Source of the DNA: Candidatus Latescibacterota bacterium
GTDB taxonomy: Bacteria > Latescibacterota > UBA2968 > GCA-2709665
Assembly: GCA_965208835.1 (NCBI GenBank)
Contig: OZ242358.1
Coordinates: forward strand, 1,440,001-1,504,000
DNA length: 64,000 bases
Direction: 5' to 3'
Notes under the pieces: model-generated
The model's database searches: none
Seen by the model: the letters and a program-made list of their open reading frames with translations, nothing else
What the model was told of the DNA's origin: nothing
In this document: piece after piece, positions 1,989 to 46,130 of the stretch
Layout of the letters: each line of letters opens with the position of its first letter
How positions within the stretch are numbered: position 1 is the first letter of the stretch
Made by a program: the position numbers and the translations under genes

Positions 1989-2084
1989 CTCTCCAACTTC
2001 CGTGTTTGCTTGCGCGGCTTCGCTATGCTCAGCCGCGACCAAATAGGTGGAAATGAACGGGCGAGTACATTTGATGGTTCAATC

Positions 2085-2182
2085 ACTCCCCCCTTGAGGG
2101 GGAGTCGCAGAAGCCGAGCCGGTCCCCTGATCCCTGTCCTGAGCTTGTCGAAGGGGCCGGCGACGGCTGATGCGGAGGGGGG
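2085..2182 (+). repeat. Palindromic miniature repeat family C, copy 1
   Basis: ACTCCCCCCTTGAGGGGGAGTCGCAGAAGCCGAGCCGG...CCGGCGACGGCTGATGCGG is nearly the same as 45983-46080. Confidence 0.8.
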
Positions 2183-2267
2183 ATTTCAATGCGTTACCGG
2201 ACACCGGCAGCCTGATTTGAGATCTTCCCATTTTGCGTTGGAGTCTTACAAGTAAGGTCTAAAATGT

Positions 2268-4583
2268 TCAGATAAGTGTCCGATATCGATCCAATGCCCT
2301 TTGTTTTATCGTCCCAATGAGATGCTTCGACACCATCTTAAAGGCACTATCCAGTCCCCAGGCATATCGAGTGTCCACAATTGCTTCACCGGATGGTTCA
2401 ATCTCCCGACGAATTGGCATCTTAATACAATTGGCAAGCTCGACCAATTCATGAATTCCGTCTCTGTCGGAGATAAGGATCGGCGCGCAACATTCGATGG
2501 TTCTGCCCAGCATCAGCGTCGCTAACCGCGACGAATCCGAAGGAAGCTCTTCCCACACATTCCAGATGATCGGTTTGCAATTTGCCTGTTTAGCTCGATC
2601 TATAATATGAAAACACTCAGCTGCATTTAAAATACGATCCTTTGCCACAATCCCGACGTAAACTGATCCATGAGTTGTTTCCAGAGCACGTCCTGGTGCA
2701 TCCACAGCAACCCATCCTGACCGACTACGGACTGCAGGATGTTCGTCGAACAAACCCACACGGATAGGCTGTCTTGCATTCGTATTTGGGGGTTTCTTCG
2801 GTTTTGGTCTCGACAGGTTATCGGCTTTCGGAACACGTTCCCAATCCAATTCTCCTTCAAGCTGTCCCATATCGAGGTCGACTACGTAGACATTCCCCGG
2901 CTCGGAACATTGCGACAACGGCTGCGAGTCATTAGTACCGGCTCGCCGCGCTGTGAGTTCATTACCATCGGGTGAAAAACCAAATGGATGAGTCCCGGAC
3001 TGCTTCTGCATACTGTCGTGAAGCGTACAGAGGGAGAATACGCGATTTTCTACCGCCCTCAGGCGAAGGATTGATGACCATTTGATGTCAATGACATTGT
3101 CGTAGCTCGGATTTATCCATATACGGGCGCCACTTTGTGCGAGAAAGCGAGGCAACAGACCCAAATATTGGTCGTGGCAAATCGTGGCGCCAGCCCTCAC
3201 ACCGCTCAAGTCGAAGGTTGGTAGCGCATTTTCCGGTTGCCAATCAAGCCGCTCAAATGCGACGGCCTCTTCTGTGGAATGTTTCGTGTAAAATCGTGAA
3301 GCTGTTCCGTCTGGGTCTATGCGAACAAGCACCTGCCAGGTGCGGCCAGTAGAGTCGACATTATTATCGGCTGCGCCGACCAGCAATGGCGCAGCCAGGG
3401 CCACGGCGAGTTTCTTCAGTTGGTTGATACGTTTGGAATCGGTCGCGCTAATATATCCTTCCGGAAAGAGAACAAAGTCTACGTTCTCGCCAGCGAAGGA
3501 CGCGTGGGTGGGTATGACGGGTTTCTGGGCATTGTCTCCGAGAGGTACGATTCCGAGTAGCGTCTTATGGTCTACCTGAGGAAACACGAGCGCCGCTCGC
3601 AGTACAGAAGTCTTTCCAGCAGCGGATTTATGCCTTTTGATCGTCGTTTGGCTTGTTCTTAGGGGCTTCCGCGTTGAACTGCGATTGCCGATAGAATCGG
3701 AGAATCGCTGCCGGTCGATTGTGCTGTCCGGGTCGAGCGAGCACCAGACTATATCGCGGGAGTGCAGTCTGACTGTTGGCTGAAGTCCCTTTGTCGACGG
3801 TAAGAGATCGCGTAGCGCGTCATACCAGGCACGCTGTTCGTCGCGGAATGGGGGATCATTGTCCTTCGCATCGTGTTGCTCACAGTGGGAGATCCATTGC
3901 TTTCCGGAAAAACCCAGTGCCAGGTCGTCCGGGTACGCGTGGAGGGTCAGCTTTCGAGGCATCGTAAAGTGTTGTCGTTCATCAAATTCCAGGATGAAGC
4001 CGGGGTCCGGTACCCAAAAGTCGCAAGCGGCCAGAGTTTCGGATCTCACGAAATCATCCATGGCAAAGCCACGGTATTTCTTTAGAATTGCTGCGAGTTC
4101 CCGCAGTGTCGAGTAGATCGGTGTTCCGGCGTATGAGGAGAGATGAGTTGGCCAGACAAACTTATAGTCCGCGACGCATTCTCCATAGATTCGTTCTAGA
4201 AGCTCGCGAACGCGGACCTTACAGTCAGGACAATGCTCGTAGTGATGTTCATGCTGAATCACGGTCTTCTTCTTCTTGGGTCGACCAGCATGAAACGTGG
4301 ATGGCGAGTGGCGATATTTACCTCCGCAATCGCACTCGACAATTTTGAAGCCACGTTTCCTCAGAAAGCCATTGGACTCACCGCCGCCAGAGAATTCGTA
4401 CGAAGGAAGAAGCCGATCCGTTGCTATCTTGTGAGCCAATGCGACCGTGTACTTGGGTGGGTAATGACAGCCGTCCTTAACCAGGCAGTAATGCCGCCCC
4501 TTCCTGCGCGGCGGAACACCCTCAAGCCTGATGCGACAAATTGCTTTGTGCAGGTGCTCGCTTTTGATGCAAGACGGTATCAC
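2268..4583 (-). CDS. 771-aa multidomain protein: McrA/McrB-type N-terminal domain + PD-(D/E)xK-like nuclease + carbon-nitrogen hydrolase + unknown C-terminus
   Basis: YPPKY...EFSGG..N.FL...GF N-terminal motif; CDFWVP..FILEFDERQH; nitrilase triad FPEGY, YTKH, TICHD plus RAVEN. GTG start follows GGAGAG. Visibly more AT-rich than its neighbours. Confidence 0.75.
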   Translation of the reverse strand: MIPSCIKSEHLHKAICRIRLEGVPPRRKGRHYCLVKDGCHYPPKYTVALAHKIATDRLLPSYEFSGGGESNGFLRKRGFKIVECDCGGKYRHSPSTFHAGRPKKKKTVIQHEHHYEHCPDCKVRVRELLERIYGECVADYKFVWPTHLSSYAGTPIYSTLRELAAILKKYRGFAMDDFVRSETLAACDFWVPDPGFILEFDERQHFTMPRKLTLHAYPDDLALGFSGKQWISHCEQHDAKDNDPPFRDEQRAWYDALRDLLPSTKGLQPTVRLHSRDIVWCSLDPDSTIDRQRFSDSIGNRSSTRKPLRTSQTTIKRHKSAAGKTSVLRAALVFPQVDHKTLLGIVPLGDNAQKPVIPTHASFAGENVDFVLFPEGYISATDSKRINQLKKLAVALAAPLLVGAADNNVDSTGRTWQVLVRIDPDGTASRFYTKHSTEEAVAFERLDWQPENALPTFDLSGVRAGATICHDQYLGLLPRFLAQSGARIWINPSYDNVIDIKWSSILRLRAVENRVFSLCTLHDSMQKQSGTHPFGFSPDGNELTARRAGTNDSQPLSQCSEPGNVYVVDLDMGQLEGELDWERVPKADNLSRPKPKKPPNTNARQPIRVGLFDEHPAVRSRSGWVAVDAPGRALETTHGSVYVGIVAKDRILNAAECFHIIDRAKQANCKPIIWNVWEELPSDSSRLATLMLGRTIECCAPILISDRDGIHELVELANCIKMPIRREIEPSGEAIVDTRYAWGLDSAFKMVSKHLIGTIKQRALDRYRTLI

Positions 4584-4723
4584 CGTTTTTCTCTCCCGAA
4601 TAATTCATGGAAAAACGAAGCTTTCATACTCAAGTCATTGTATTATATTATAGTTACGCAATTTTCATGTGAAAGATACAGTCGCATTGGCCGTGACGCA
4701 AACATCCAACGAACCCTTCACAG

Positions 4724-4867
4724 GGTGGAGCGGACATTCCTGTCTGCTCACGTACATATAACCGATTGCCCGGACGCAGTGGCAAGTCGCAAGCCTGCCA
4801 TGGTCGCTCTATGGCGCCTTCCGGCAGATGGACAGCGAGACGGGCAGACAGGAATGTCCGCTCCACC
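4724..4867. repeat. Inverted REP pair (REPIN-like, family D)
   Basis: GGTGGAGCGGACATTCCTGTCTGCTC (4724-4749) and near-perfect reverse complement GGGCAGACAGGAATGTCCGCTCCACC (4842-4867). Confidence 0.8.
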
Positions 4868-4973
4868 TTCAGACACACTTTCCTATCGGCTGGACTGACC
4901 AATTGGTCAGCCGTCTCTGGCCTCGGAGAACGGAGGCATGTCATGTGCTTCGTTGTAAACCTCCACTTACGTA

Positions 4974-5792
4974 TCACGATTCTTGAGTCGCGTATCGTAT
5001 CGCGTGGTGGTCGTAATCGCTCGTGATGGGCACGGGTTTCCCTTCCAGAAACGCCCATCTCCCCACGTCGCACGCGGATGCGCGGACGAATCCGTTGATG
5101 TAGGATCGCCGGGGATTATGTGTCGTATTGGGCGACGAGCCGTGGATCGTGTATGACGTGAACATAAGCACGTCGCCCGGTTTGGCCTCGCAGGGAACGG
5201 CAGCGGAGACGTCAACCTGCGCTTCAACGCTTCCCTTCGCGTACCGTTTCACTCTCAAGTCGCCCAGTTTGTGGCTCGCGGGAACGACGTGCAGACACCC
5301 GTTGGCGACGTTCGACTCGTCTACCACAACGATGGTCTGTACGTAATTGTTGACTTGATCGCGAAACGCGGGTGTGGGGCGTACGTCCTGGTGCCACGGA
5401 AACTCGATCTTCCCGCCCGGCATCTTGAAGTTGATCTGGTTGATATACTGCTTCAACGTCGTCCCGATCAGCGGCGCCAGGAGTGCCGGGAATCTGGGAC
5501 TGTTTCGGATTTCTTCGAACGCCGGATGGATCAGCGCGGGCCACTGGACTTTGCGTAGATATCGAACCGCGTCGGGTCCGGCCATCGGCCCTGGAGTCTG
5601 CAGGTGAATATGTACGTCATTCCGCCTGCCATTGAGGACTTCCTCCGGCAGATCCGTCCGCGAAGCCAGCTCCAGGATATAGTCGTAACCTTCGCGCAAA
5701 CGCACGATTTCGTCCCGCCCGAATACCCCGCGCGCCACGTGGTATCCCTGTTCCCTGAAGGCTTCGACGTCTTTCTGGCTGAGCGTCTTCAT
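4974..5792 (-). CDS. Phytanoyl-CoA dioxygenase (PhyH) family protein
   Basis: F.EQGY, PWHQD, NGCL.VVPASH, GDVLMF..YTIHGSSPN...RRS. Start MKTLSQ at 5792. Confidence 0.9.
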   Translation of the reverse strand: MKTLSQKDVEAFREQGYHVARGVFGRDEIVRLREGYDYILELASRTDLPEEVLNGRRNDVHIHLQTPGPMAGPDAVRYLRKVQWPALIHPAFEEIRNSPRFPALLAPLIGTTLKQYINQINFKMPGGKIEFPWHQDVRPTPAFRDQVNNYVQTIVVVDESNVANGCLHVVPASHKLGDLRVKRYAKGSVEAQVDVSAAVPCEAKPGDVLMFTSYTIHGSSPNTTHNPRRSYINGFVRASACDVGRWAFLEGKPVPITSDYDHHAIRYATQES

Positions 5793-6169: not shown

Positions 6170-6979
6170 CTAGTCCAGTTCCGGCAGGTTCGACTGGTCG
6201 ATGAGAACCCTGATCGAGCGCGGACGACGCGCAACCCGTGAGATGAAGCCCTGCTCTTCCAATCGCTTGAGCATGCTGTTCACGGACGGCGCCGTAACGC
6301 CGAAGTAGCGCTGGATATCGGCCTGGGCGGGCGGAATGCCATTTATCTTGGTGTAGTAGTGAATGAAGGCCAGATATTGACCTTGTCGATAGGTATAGGA
6401 GGTGTCAACGATGGCATCGTAGAATGCGTCAATATCGAACTCAGCCAGGTATTTATTGACATTATCGATGGGGTAGTACTCGGGGTCGAATTTACCCCCA
6501 ATCCAGTCGACCATCGAGGAATGTTCCGGATGATCGGCGTCCGCCAGGGCCTCGAGAAATTCCGCATATCCCTCGACTCCGCCCACATCTTCCGGCGGAC
6601 AGGATCGCTCGCCCGCCAGAACGACGGTTTTGAATTGCTCGTCTTCAGATTCTTCGATTGCTTCGACTTTCACCTGATGCTCCCAACTGTCACCGAAATC
6701 GTATTCGTAGAGAAATTCGACCCCGACGAAGGGCGCCACCTGCTCCAGCGTGAACATTTCTTCTTCCTGCACGTCTTCACCCAAATCGTCGAATTCCGGG
6801 TCGTACATCCCGTAGCGGGTGTCGCCTATTTGAAACTCGTGGAGGTGGGAGTTGGTCCACCCCATCGCGATCTGAAGGTACAGGTGGAGGTCGTCCAGAG
6901 ACCTCTGCCCGTCAACGAGGACGCGTCTCCAGATAGGCGGCTCGATGTTCAGCATGGTGATCTTGAGTTGGTAGATCAT
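6170..6979 (-). CDS. pRiA4b ORF-3 family protein with C-terminal LexA/MarR-like winged HTH
   Basis: IYQLKI..PPIWRR, GW.NSHLHEF, YDFGDSWEH, CPPEDVGG. C-terminal QGQYLAFI..PPAQADIQRYFGV.APSV..ML..LE..GFI. AAGGAG precedes ATG 6979. Confidence 0.85.
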   Translation of the reverse strand: MIYQLKITMLNIEPPIWRRVLVDGQRSLDDLHLYLQIAMGWTNSHLHEFQIGDTRYGMYDPEFDDLGEDVQEEEMFTLEQVAPFVGVEFLYEYDFGDSWEHQVKVEAIEESEDEQFKTVVLAGERSCPPEDVGGVEGYAEFLEALADADHPEHSSMVDWIGGKFDPEYYPIDNVNKYLAEFDIDAFYDAIVDTSYTYRQGQYLAFIHYYTKINGIPPAQADIQRYFGVTAPSVNSMLKRLEEQGFISRVARRPRSIRVLIDQSNLPELD

Positions 6980-7003
6980 GCACACGCTCCTTGTCAAGCG
7001 AGT

Positions 7004-7894: not shown

Positions 7895-9646
7895 CTATTT
7901 CTCCGCGCCGTATCGCCTGAGCAAAGCGCCGATGTCTGTGATCTTCGTGTCGAGGCGGGCGTATTCTTTGTGGCCCTGCGGATTCTCGCTCCAGGTCAGG
8001 GGCGTCGCCCACGTCGCGCCCGCCAGATTCGGGTCCGCGCCCGCTTCCAGCATGAACCTGGCGAGCCCGGGCCACTCGAAGCGAACCGCCATTGCGAGCG
8101 GCGTGGATTGCCTCTCTCCGCCCAGCACGTCCAGCTCCGCACCACGGTCTATCAGCTTCTCCGCGAACACGATCCGGTCCTGCTCGGTGACGTGCCAGGT
8201 GATTTCCGCGGTCCAGTGAAGGGGTGTGAGACCGCCCTTCCTGTCGCGCGCATTCGGATCGAACCCATGATCCAGAAGGCGTTCGAAGCAGGCGTAGAAG
8301 TGTTCGGGCCGGGCCTTTCCCGGGTTGCGCGGACATCGGAGGCGCCACATCCGCATGGCCAGACACAACACGTCGTGCATTTCGCCCTCGGAAAAGCCCG
8401 GATTCTGTGAGAGACACAGTGCCACGAGATCCGGATGACCGCCGTGGACGGCGCCTTTCAGAACGTCCTTCGCACACGATGGATCGGAGTTTACGAGTGC
8501 GGCATCGACGGCGATGTTGTCGCTGTTCGAGGCGTAGAATCCAGGCGCGACACCGTCGTCGAACCCGGGAAATGCGCCGTGCCGCAACAGCAGTTTTTCC
8601 ATGGCGACGTTCCCGTTCGCGATCGCCCAGTTCAACGCGTTGCCGGACGCGTCCATCACGGTATGCGCCGATGCTCCGTTCTCAAGGAGCAGCGTTGCCA
8701 ACTCCAGATCGTCGTTGAGCGCCGCCGCGTGTAACGGGGCGCCTCGCTCGGCCACGGGGTATCCTTCGTACTTGTCGTAAGGCGTGTCCGGATCCGCGCC
8801 ACGTTCCAGCAGGAGGCGCACGACCTCAAGGTGTCCCCTGTCGGCGGCAATGGAGATCGGATACGCGTCCATGCCGGGGTAATTCCGGGCCCAGTCATTC
8901 ACGGCGTCGGGATCGCCATCCAGAATCCTCCGCGCGCCAAGGACGTCGCCGATGGCGCAGGCAACCCACAGGTCGTATTCCGCGCCGTGTCCCAACAGGA
9001 TGCCCCCGATGACCGGCCAGAGCGGGCTCGGTTGCGGGTCCCACCCGCGTTTTGGCCGGGGACCGAGCGCAAGGTGGATTGGCTTCTTCTCTCGAGCGTT
9101 CGTTCGATTCGGATCGGCGCCGCGATACAGGAGTTCCTGAGTCACGTCGACATGATGATTCTCCACCGCGACGTGAAGCGCCGTATCGCCGCTTCTGTTT
9201 ACACCGTGTATCCCCGCAGGGTCCGCATCGAGCAGTTCATTCAAGCGTTCAAGATCGCCTCTGACCGCGGCCAGGCATAATTCGACTCCGGTCTCTGTCT
9301 CTCCGGACTGCCGCAACCGCCAGGCTTCCATTGCTTCCTCCACGTCGGTATGCCCTTGGTGGCGGGCCATATCGATTGCCGACACGCGCTCCCGGTAGGT
9401 TATCCGCGTGGGGCTGGCGCCGGCAGCCAGGAGCAGCCTGACCACCTCCAGGTGGCCCTCACGCGCAGCGTAGTGAATGGCCTGATAACCCTGTACCCCG
9501 TCCCGGCGAGCGAGATCGGGTTTCCGCTTCAGGATGGCCTGTACCGATTCCACGTCGCCCCGACGCGCCGCCTTGCAGATTTCGGCGACACCGGCGATCT
9601 CGTCATCCCGGGCCGGTCCATTCCTGCGAGACTCTCTCTTTGCCAT
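7895..9646 (-). CDS. Ankyrin-repeat protein
   Basis: Many ankyrin repeats: AIHYAAREGHLEVVRLLL, TALHVAV, PLHAAA, TPLHW, GADPN. Confidence 0.9.
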   Translation of the reverse strand: MAKRESRRNGPARDDEIAGVAEICKAARRGDVESVQAILKRKPDLARRDGVQGYQAIHYAAREGHLEVVRLLLAAGASPTRITYRERVSAIDMARHQGHTDVEEAMEAWRLRQSGETETGVELCLAAVRGDLERLNELLDADPAGIHGVNRSGDTALHVAVENHHVDVTQELLYRGADPNRTNAREKKPIHLALGPRPKRGWDPQPSPLWPVIGGILLGHGAEYDLWVACAIGDVLGARRILDGDPDAVNDWARNYPGMDAYPISIAADRGHLEVVRLLLERGADPDTPYDKYEGYPVAERGAPLHAAALNDDLELATLLLENGASAHTVMDASGNALNWAIANGNVAMEKLLLRHGAFPGFDDGVAPGFYASNSDNIAVDAALVNSDPSCAKDVLKGAVHGGHPDLVALCLSQNPGFSEGEMHDVLCLAMRMWRLRCPRNPGKARPEHFYACFERLLDHGFDPNARDRKGGLTPLHWTAEITWHVTEQDRIVFAEKLIDRGAELDVLGGERQSTPLAMAVRFEWPGLARFMLEAGADPNLAGATWATPLTWSENPQGHKEYARLDTKITDIGALLRRYGAEK

Positions 9647-45199: not shown

Positions 45200-46130
45200 G
45201 CGAGGGCATCCTGCCCTAGAAGGCTGTCTCGCGACCGCGTTGCGTTTCAGAAATGCGGGCGACCACAAGAGTCGCCCCTACATATGAAATCAAACCTGTC
45301 CTAAAACGGGTTTGAGTCACTACGAGAGTCGCGAAAATACGCGAAATAAACGGATGGTAAAAACGTCCGCTGCCACTGGCGAAACGTGTCGGTCAGGAGT
45401 CGGCGAAAATTGTCAACCAGAGGAGGCCTGGATGCAACGTCGACGAAATGCATCGGTTTCACATGACACCAGACTGTCATCCAGGGGACTTGCCCTGAGC
45501 CTGTCGAAGGGGCACCCAGGCCGACGAAGGATCTACTGCAGCATGAAATCATCCCCGTGCGACTCTCACATTACGATACCTGAGAGGCAGCACGTCCGCC
45601 CCCAACGCGGCACGGAAGCGGCGGGAGATGCTTCGACTCCGCTCAATATGACATGCGTTACAACAAACACGAACCGTTGGCAACCTGGTTTCCGTAATCC
45701 GGGTCAGGCCCGTATAAATTCGCCAATTGAAGCCGCTTTTCGAACATCATCTACAAGAATTTCACGGTTCCTGGACACCAGTGATACGAAACATGGCCGC
45801 GAGGTTTTGGGGATGGCTGGGTGGACTTCTCGATCTACCAGGAGCGAGGGCATCCTTCCCTCGATGGCCGTTTCACGACCCCGTTGCGCTGCCGACAGGC
45901 GGGCGACCACAAGGGTCGCCACTACAAAAGACAGCAACAGATATGTGGAAGTGCACGCGCGAGCCCGTTTAACGGTCCGATTACTCCCCACTCGAGGTGG
46001 AGTCGCAGAAGCCAAGCCGGTCCCCTCAGCACTCGCCGATAGTTTGTCGAAGGGCCGGCGAAGGCTGATGCGGTGGGGGGTATATAGCGCCTGCCGTCCT
46101 CCGAGTCGCTGGAGACCCTTGATAGCCGTT
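45200..46130. repeat. Cluster of nested REP-like palindromes from several families, including family C copy 2 (45983-46080)
   Basis: GAGGGCATCCTGCCCT, GGGCGACCACAAG(A/G)GTCGCC twice, CCCTGAGCCTGTCGAAGG, GATGCTTCGACTCCGCTCA. No credible CDS. Confidence 0.7.

Follow-up and report, generated by a model that had tools for sequence, protein, structure and literature searches.

That bacterial immunity can require a nitrilase-superfamily domain as its effector is a recent finding. Two described examples are DRT1 (UG1; PMC13275509) and DRT11 (UG5; PMC13436386), single large proteins in which the nitrilase-superfamily domain accompanies a reverse transcriptase (RT) domain and is a required effector, showing that an abortive-infection system can depend on a nitrilase in this role. 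In both reports the substrate is given as unknown; the DRT1 authors think that it is probably some essential molecule bearing an amine or amide (PMC13275509). A further relevant system is ScoMcrA, the type IV phosphorothioate-dependent restriction endonuclease of Streptomyces coelicolor (5ZMM). According to its structural description (PMC6224610), it begins with a small, flexibly attached head domain whose function is described as unknown and continues with SBD, SRA and HNH domains; the SBD reads phosphorothioate, sensing is carried out by the SBD and SRA, and the HNH domain cuts. Here we describe a gene of a Candidatus Latescibacterota bacterium whose product of 771 amino acids (aa) joins a ScoMcrA-like head, a putative nuclease domain, a CN-hydrolase (nitrilase) domain and a C-terminal domain of its own. 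The gene lies in a 64,000-nucleotide stretch of contig OZ242358.1 (assembly GCA_965208835.1, positions 1,440,001 to 1,504,000 of the forward strand), hereafter called the window. Our leading but tentative reading is that it encodes a stand-alone, horizontally spread accessory enzyme, most likely with a role in conflicts that involve phages or other mobile DNA. Like DRT1 and DRT11 (PMC13275509; PMC13436386), the protein is large, single and equipped with a nitrilase-superfamily domain, but it has no RT domain; its partners are instead the head and the nuclease-like domain, and its C-terminal domain is private.

At 2268..4583 the minus strand carries a single open reading frame (ORF) of 771 aa with a GTG start, the coordinates including the stop codon. 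The start is taken to be right because homologues begin at the same residue (M-I-P...). The reading frame agrees with an initial annotation made from the sequence alone, and every motif listed there was found in its place: YPPKY at aa 41-45, EFSGG at aa 63-67, C84-x-C86, C118-x-x-C121, D188-F189...E199-F-D201-E202-x-Q204-H205, and the nitrilase triad E375/K434/C469. In 15 diverse full-length homologues these motifs are invariant except for the two Cys pairs, C84/C86 being kept in 13/15 and C118/C121 in 14/15. The stretch of about 190 aa noticed after the nitrilase corresponds to aa 579-771, and the gene is indeed more AT-rich than the flanking genes: in windows of 500 nucleotides (nt), its G+C content (GC) is 0.47-0.55 (2251-4750), versus 0.60-0.62 (501-2250) and 0.58-0.59 (4751-5750) on either side. 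The product is a single chain made up of four conserved modules that fold separately. Identity to distant copies is 48-56% in the domains, all four alike, versus 15-30% in the linkers, which points to clear purifying selection on all four across phyla. The gene and its parts are the following.

2268..4583, minus strand: the whole gene, 771 aa; its full-length homologues form more than 120 clusters, at 55-78% identity
4314..4583, minus strand: ScoMcrA_N-type head, aa 1-90, as indicated by profile search against the PDB, Foldseek, the PF26345 label and a predicted local distance difference test (pLDDT) score >90
4221..4334, minus strand: Cys-rich stretch, aa 84-121, with C84-x-C86...C118-x-x-C121 around a low-confidence linker (aa 95-105)
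3684..4247, minus strand: DUF7255-like middle domain, aa 113-300, with 20 invariant columns and sub-threshold profile and fold matches
2850..3596, minus strand: CN-hydrolase domain, aa 330-578, with a PF00795 match, E375, K434, C469 and probably E444
2271..2756, minus strand: C-terminal domain, aa 610-771, predicted from an AlphaFold model, of a family without clear relatives

The fusion is real and not an assembly artefact. Among 8000 candidates scored, 639 proteins matched at E<=1e-3; the best 120 of these 639 span 96-100% of the query and share 55-100% identity with it, and many of them lie on megabase contigs. A word-free search gave 1447 representatives at E<=1e-3. The full architecture recurs in many genomes, so it is not confined to one assembly. 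In 76 loci that we retrieved, full-length copies share 53-78% identity across many bacterial phyla, with record titles naming Latescibacterota, Gemmatimonadota, Nitrospira, Vicinamibacterales and Bryobacterales, as well as Alpha- and Gammaproteobacteria, Dadabacteria and Thermodesulfobacteriota. Copies at 40% identity are found in Aenigmatarchaeota and Dehalococcoidia records, and a shorter copy at 53% in a Nitrosopumilus record. Several of the record names are those of probable marine-invertebrate symbiont lineages. Across the 76 loci no neighbour is conserved: the cluster of the gene itself is present in 74/76, and the next neighbour cluster in 9/76, its representative ORFs coming from loci of the same genus. 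Because no neighbour is conserved, the gene appears to work alone, and its initial description as a stand-alone fusion holds.

Pfam PF00795 (CN_hydrolase) matches aa 370-537 with 47.6 bits (cut-off 23.2; E 1.8e-12), and E375, K434 and C469 are invariant in 15/15 homologues, bearing out the intact nitrilase triad that had been read from the sequence. E444, present in 13/15, is the probable second Glu, judging by the family and an alignment with Nit2. Nit/Nit2-type and archaeal CN-hydrolases (PDB 2w1v, 1f89, 1j31) share the fold signature of the superfamily and its Glu-Lys-Cys triad, but their similarity to the domain is very low (E 2.5e-4 at best), the PDB sequence matches to Nit2 and Nit3 being weak. 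The amidase and nitrilase equivalogs of NCBIfam all score far below their cut-offs (the best being Lnt, 26.1 bits versus 132.9, and archaeal nitrilase, 21.3 versus 500). Because this similarity is very low and no NCBIfam equivalog comes near its cut-off, the domain fits no characterised branch. A second, ordinary CN-hydrolase paralogue lies in the same genome outside the window (G000 C1 2309541-2309888) and resembles the query's nitrilase domain only weakly, E 4.2e-4 at 30% identity.

The C-terminal domain is always accompanied by the nitrilase domain. The AlphaFold model of aa 576-771 has a pLDDT of 91.1 and a predicted template modelling (pTM) score of 0.87, and W674, N675, W677, G693, R694, S705, D706, E715 and K721 are invariant. 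The best Foldseek matches of this model are nitrilase-superfamily amidases, at weak values (E 2e-3 to 5e-2; template modelling (TM) score 0.3-0.4), and ESM Atlas scores for the domain are only 0.87-0.89, with one CN-hydrolase cluster at 0.87. The possibility that it is a duplicated nitrilase half was rejected, as hhalign showed no relation to the nitrilase domain of the same protein (prob 0.4%). We regard it as a domain of unknown family, predicted to fold confidently and without clear relatives.

The only firmly assigned domain is thus a hydrolase of small C-N compounds, and this speaks for a metabolic explanation: the protein could be a niche-specific metabolic or detoxifying amidase/nitrilase, merely regulated or localised by its N-terminal modules, that acts on an amide or nitrile compound common in a habitat which these organisms share and spreads through its usefulness there, not through any effect on phages. 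The probable marine-invertebrate symbiont lineages among the record names would suit this. We nevertheless consider it unlikely. The named amidase and nitrilase equivalogs of NCBIfam, far below their cut-offs, do not favour it, and as regulators of a metabolic enzyme a restriction-enzyme head and a domain carrying a nuclease-like acidic motif would be strange.

The restriction-enzyme character of the head comes from two kinds of comparison. A profile of 63 homologues matched residues 4-97 of 5zmm_A (ScoMcrA) in the PDB at E 6.4e-6, and the top Foldseek match of an AlphaFold model of aa 1-330 was 5zmm_B (prob 0.98, E 2.5e-2). In this model the pLDDT is 88.3 overall, above 90 in the head and below 50 in the linker (aa 95-105). 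Nearly all homologues carry the precomputed Pfam label PF26345 (ScoMcrA_N); in our Pfam scan of the protein PF26345 was unmatched, the version used perhaps lacking that model. From these profile and model matches, the homology of aa 1-90 to the ScoMcrA head domain is real. The likeness covers the N-terminal head of about 90 aa: the PDB profile match ends at ScoMcrA residue 97, and Pfam scans of the protein found none of the SBD, SRA and HNH domains with which ScoMcrA continues (PMC6224610). The initial annotation had seen in this N-terminus a restriction-type sensor akin to McrA/McrB-type enzymes. Homology to a type IV enzyme stands, while no McrB-type similarity was seen, and the label of sensor is an assumption because the matched part of ScoMcrA is the head, whereas the SBD and SRA do the sensing there (PMC6224610).

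A word search with the head alone returned 15 proteins among 36 candidates, close relatives only. We note that a head-like N-terminus, with 44% identity to aa 2-81, is carried by a 416-aa hypothetical protein (L149) of the Thermococcus barophilus plasmid pTBMP1 (NC_015471.1 25618-26868). Its gene lies in a same-strand run with genes for an NYN-domain protein, a type I restriction endonuclease, RNase J, a class II glutamine amidotransferase, a gamma-glutamylcyclotransferase and an ADP-ribosylglycohydrolase.

The middle domain has 20 columns that are invariant in 63 sequences (K122, D188, E199, D201, E202, Q204, H205, F206, R210, L214, D241, P244, R247, D248, E249, R251, D255, R258, D259 and R272), and C118, C121, C234 and C281, each at least 90% conserved in the same set, may bind zinc. 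AlphaFold models the domain with a confidence of ~96-98. Pfam DUF7255 (PF23913) reaches 21.4 bits against a 27-bit cut-off, over aa 194-239 and 46/156 profile positions, and the nearest ESM Atlas clusters are stand-alone proteins of ~190 aa with DUF7255 in 14-26% of members.

The initial annotation had proposed a Vsr/DUF559-like nuclease here, and by eye the core motif does resemble that of DUF559/Vsr. Vsr/DUF559 (PF04480), DUF7255 and the middle domain share hydrophobic-D-F...h-h-h-E-h-D-x-x-Q/H-H and a later YD..RD...G..h-R, whereas the middle domain differs from DUF559 in an insertion of ~35 aa, a second invariant acidic/basic cluster (D241-R272) and the four conserved Cys. In hhalign against an alignment of 20 DUF559 domains from relatives, 20 columns were paired (prob 26.6%, E 6.9e-4; prob 0.5% in global mode), CDFxVPxPGFIVEFDESQH with vDFxCxxxxLvIEvDGxxH. 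Nothing beyond this core was aligned, and a greedy extension paired YDxLRD...G..PTVRL with yDxxRD...G..vlRi without confidence. PF04480 was unmatched in the middle domain by Pfam even at E<=10. Foldseek against the PDB reached Vsr, Exo5 and PA-N endonucleases only at E >1 (1vsr, E 6.1); against BFVD, 11 of the 13 named matches in the top 23 were endonuclease-type (E 0.07-1.6), under the names 'restriction endonuclease', Vsr, mismatch endonuclease, exonuclease and DUF559. In the model, D188 precedes strand 189-191, and E199 and D201 lie on strand 196-201, all three being invariant in the 63 sequences. These indications, concordant but sub-threshold, are weak hints of a Vsr/DUF559-like PD-(D/E)xK fold with an insertion, and such a domain may bind or cleave DNA. 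Of the nuclease claim, the shared core motif is retained, while the fold and profile matches all fall below threshold.

A DNA-type module and a C-N hydrolase in one chain could also make up a DNA-modification-processing or repair enzyme, with the N-terminal half as the binding part for modified or damaged DNA and the CN-hydrolase as the part that takes off or converts a base modification or adduct bearing an amide or nitrile. This seems to us improbable. Nothing points to a DNA-borne substrate, and variants that lack the middle domain or all of the N-terminal half are still found; the head is not the modification reader in ScoMcrA (PMC6224610). DpdF, from a 7-deazaguanine DNA-modification system, is among the distal neighbours of one locus, but linkage to modification genes is not conserved in the 76 loci, and the initial idea of an action on amide- or nitrile-modified phage bases found no support.

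The modules also occur in other combinations. The head, nitrilase and C-terminal domain are found without the middle domain in P0129 and P0149, the head is missing from L055, L057 and L080, and P0130, P0147, P0148 and P0160 consist of the nitrilase and C-terminal domain alone. Head and middle domain together also exist on their own, in ~300 aa, or fused to other tails, which form groups T1-T4 and one two-member group (54 representatives). By eye, P0138 ('CYD') and P0250 ('CHD') looked nitrilase-like. In hhalign only the tail of group T1 (P0138) showed a remote similarity to the nitrilase domain (prob 59.6%, E 8.9e-5, 106 columns); tails T2, T3 and T4 were also considered as nitrilases and rejected (prob <=1.7%). 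The tails of P0138, P0250, P0202, P0178, P0165 and P0243 and of their groups have no Pfam or PADLOC match, and are candidate effectors. Because the head and middle domain recur with other tails, while the nitrilase and C-terminal domain are kept in the shortened variants of the genus, the protein may be built as a DNA-directed front end joined to exchangeable effectors. For a metabolic amidase this modularity cuts both ways: the nitrilase and C-terminal domain occur without the N-terminal modules and are always kept in the genus, but the same N-terminal module sits on several unrelated tails.

Elsewhere, the gene often has defence and mobile-element genes for neighbours. At 34 loci outside the genus, the four ORFs closest to the gene (136 ORFs in all) include integrases, resolvases, DDE transposases and a TrwC relaxase, and also DruA, SIR2 proteins, a type ISP enzyme and the housekeeping PGK, LytB and MTHFR. 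When ORFs were scanned with the families of PADLOC 2023 at E<=1e-5, 151 families were matched by the 136 nearest ORFs, 128 by 136 ORFs 8-10 kb away and 53 by 120 random ORFs of the window's own genome. The weight of this difference for a role in defence is limited: models are counted instead of genes, and a single protein may account for dozens of them; one genome provides the whole control; and ORFs were called crudely. The nearest-ORF families include DruA, ThsA/ThsB, Dsr1, LmuA, UzuA and type I/IIG restriction-modification (R-M), and the distal ones Cas8c/Cas5c, DpdF, BilD and PsyrT, while the random matches are mostly generic (mad2, mad3, mad8, HEAT, AriA) with one type IIG enzyme. Per-protein scans, made on nine proteins chosen by size and not a fair sample, identified a 1703-aa type IIG/ISP R-M enzyme, Dsr1, a SIR2/STALD protein and an HNH-type protein beside homologues. 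The approximately threefold number of PADLOC models near homologues relative to the random own-genome control is suggestive. On the enrichment in defence islands, which the initial annotation proposed to test, these counts of models against one genome give a hint and not proof; the gene's own locus is without defence genes. The metabolic neighbours of that locus would suit a niche amidase; the frequent defence and mobile-element neighbours elsewhere would not.

Within its own genus the gene is an accessory one. Among 14 genus-mates, 9 have a strong match and 5 have none. In 8/8 carrier loci that were fetched, it stands between the same M14/AstE-like and PhyH genes, and in 5/5 genus-mates without it these two are directly adjacent, ~20-35 nt apart; because of this adjacency, 2043-4973 is a presence/absence polymorphism. 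The segment and its two repeat-bearing spacers are the following.

2043..4973, no strand: presence/absence segment of 2.9 kb, with the gene and both repeat-bearing spacers, between the M14/AstE-like and PhyH genes, from the genus comparison
2043..2267, no strand: downstream spacer with a dispersed repeat copy, a GC-rich palindrome near 2085-2105 (BLAST, 48 matches)
4724..4867, no strand: upstream spacer element with perfect 24-nt inverted arms (4724-4747 / 4844-4867) 96 nt apart (BLAST, 63 matches)

Four of the 8 carrier loci have the full-length gene, 2 lack aa ~97-300, 1 has aa 305-770 only and 1 is interrupted by an insertion sequence (IS). In this last one (L017 8902-10383, G008) the orthologue is broken near codon 273 by an insertion that encodes a DDE transposase of 493 aa (Pfam DDE_Tnp_1_4, E 2.6e-33). 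The variants of the genus that are shortened but not otherwise interrupted all keep the nitrilase and C-terminal domain. Within the genus, identity is 71-77% for the gene, 74-84% for the HAD gene and 69-91% for the PRiA4 gene; faster evolution than the neighbours was considered and rejected, the value for the gene falling inside the 69-91% range of its neighbours. In the genus, a single old acquisition with later losses is the simplest history.

The two palindromic repeats that had been described as bounding the gene are both present, but they are not gene-specific boundaries because both belong to dispersed repeat families: in the 5.18-Mb genome, BLAST finds 63 matches for the upstream element and 48 for the downstream palindrome, their own matches included. 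They were thereby rejected as specific ends of an element. The repeats look to be of the repetitive extragenic palindrome (REP) or miniature inverted-repeat transposable element (MITE) type, populating intergenic spacers, with an element of ~100-200 nt in the downstream family; a further dispersed-repeat copy lies at about 45941-46080 of the window (G000 1485941-1486080).

A segment of this kind might also be a toxin module of the selfish or addiction type, or a functionless remnant in decay that is carried along with its flanking dispersed repeats, an idea that draws on the two repeat elements inside the presence/absence segment, the IS-disrupted copy and a GC below that of the flanks. It is, in our view, very improbable. 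The repeats, with 48 and 63 genome-wide matches, are generic, and the conservation of the four domains (48-56% versus 15-30% in linkers) reflects clear purifying selection. No partner antitoxin gene was found in the 76 loci, and no copy on phages or mobilisable plasmids.

At larger distances the distribution is patchy. In the sister family f2, any match was found in only 1/19 genomes. On a FastTree tree of 39 full-length rows, phylum labels are clustered (11 changes versus 21.4 in shuffles), so that much of the history would be vertical within lineages, a point in favour of a niche amidase. The clade of the own genus stands apart (support 100), and some well-supported placements cross phyla: Azotimanducaceae with Nitrospirota (97), and a Palauibacter inside Acidobacteriota (99). 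The single match among the 19 sister-family genomes, the copies in archaeal bins and the GC below that of the flanks point to repeated horizontal transfer. An accessory or defence-like population behaviour is thus supported.

To the domain set, invariant residues, modularity and pattern of gain, loss and transfer described above, we add a proposal for mechanism. The head and middle domain would form a nucleic-acid-binding, probably Mg-dependent nuclease-like unit that recognises, and perhaps cuts, foreign DNA. The CN-hydrolase and C-terminal domain would be the indispensable catalytic effector, its target being a C-N bond of non-peptide type in some essential small molecule or nucleotide, in parallel with the proposal made for the nitrilase effector of DRT1 (PMC13275509). 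An effector role of the nitrilase, and any logic of its activation, would follow from this scheme. As an accessory enzyme most likely in conflict with mobile DNA, the gene may reasonably be put forward as a candidate new defence, consisting of one gene, against phages or plasmids. A bolder version is possible but held more loosely: a hitherto undescribed, RT-free, single-protein immune family in which a DNA module, made of a ScoMcrA head and a PD-(D/E)xK-like domain, works with a divergent nitrilase effector that has its own regulatory C-terminal domain, the DNA module serving four or more other effector domains as a portable front end, and the family moving between bacteria and archaea that share a habitat.

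Several observations weigh against a role in conflict with mobile DNA. The stand-alone nitrilase and C-terminal proteins (those listed above as P0130, P0147, P0148 and P0160) would be awkward for an unregulated toxin, and the nuclease assignment of the middle domain is below threshold in every test. In the window the neighbours are ordinary genes (HAD hydrolase, M14/AstE-like, PhyH, PRiA4_ORF3-HTH, methyltransferase, ankyrin). Within the genus the gene is syntenic, about as diverged as some of its neighbours and without a sign of unusually fast evolution. No family of PADLOC 2023, DRT models included, matches the 771-aa protein at E<=1. Of the parallel with RT-nitrilase (DRT1-type) systems drawn by the initial annotation, the intact nitrilase in an RT-free protein is confirmed, while no DRT model is matched. 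Ten relatives with alternative architectures also had no PADLOC match, except for one head match to a type IV model at E 2e-3. Finally, 50,697 phage records held no copy, and 72,556 plasmid records two partial matches only.

If the tentative reading is right, the fusion family would offer an independent, RT-free and much simpler setting for finding what nitrilase effectors hydrolyse, and it would place two orphan modules, the ScoMcrA head domain and DUF7255, in a functional setting for the first time. With a defence role, the other tails of the N-terminal module would become further candidate effector domains. Were the protein a habitat-specific amidase instead, its spread over many bacterial phyla and archaeal bins would be a clear case of niche-driven gene sharing. 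Our literature search returned no paper on the fusion family, DUF7255, ScoMcrA_N, PF26345 or PF23913, although supplements of DRT and defence-census papers may list the family. In the portions of the literature on CN-hydrolases in defence that it covered, these enzymes were only RT-linked, NACHT-linked or ParA-linked (cf. 10.64898/2026.10.19.760177, 10.1101/2022.07.19.500537).

One further feature lies upstream of the gene.

4645..4673, minus strand: promoter-like site TTCACA-17-TAATAT, ~60 nt upstream of the GTG

The region has 4 such promoter-like sites versus 2.0 +/- 1.6 in shuffles, so this is a weak lead only. Beside the locus, two genes of the window are conserved across the genus. The first (6170-6997) encodes a 275-aa protein in which a PRiA4_ORF3 domain is fused to a LexA/MarR-type HTH, and the second (7895-9646) a 583-aa ankyrin-repeat protein.

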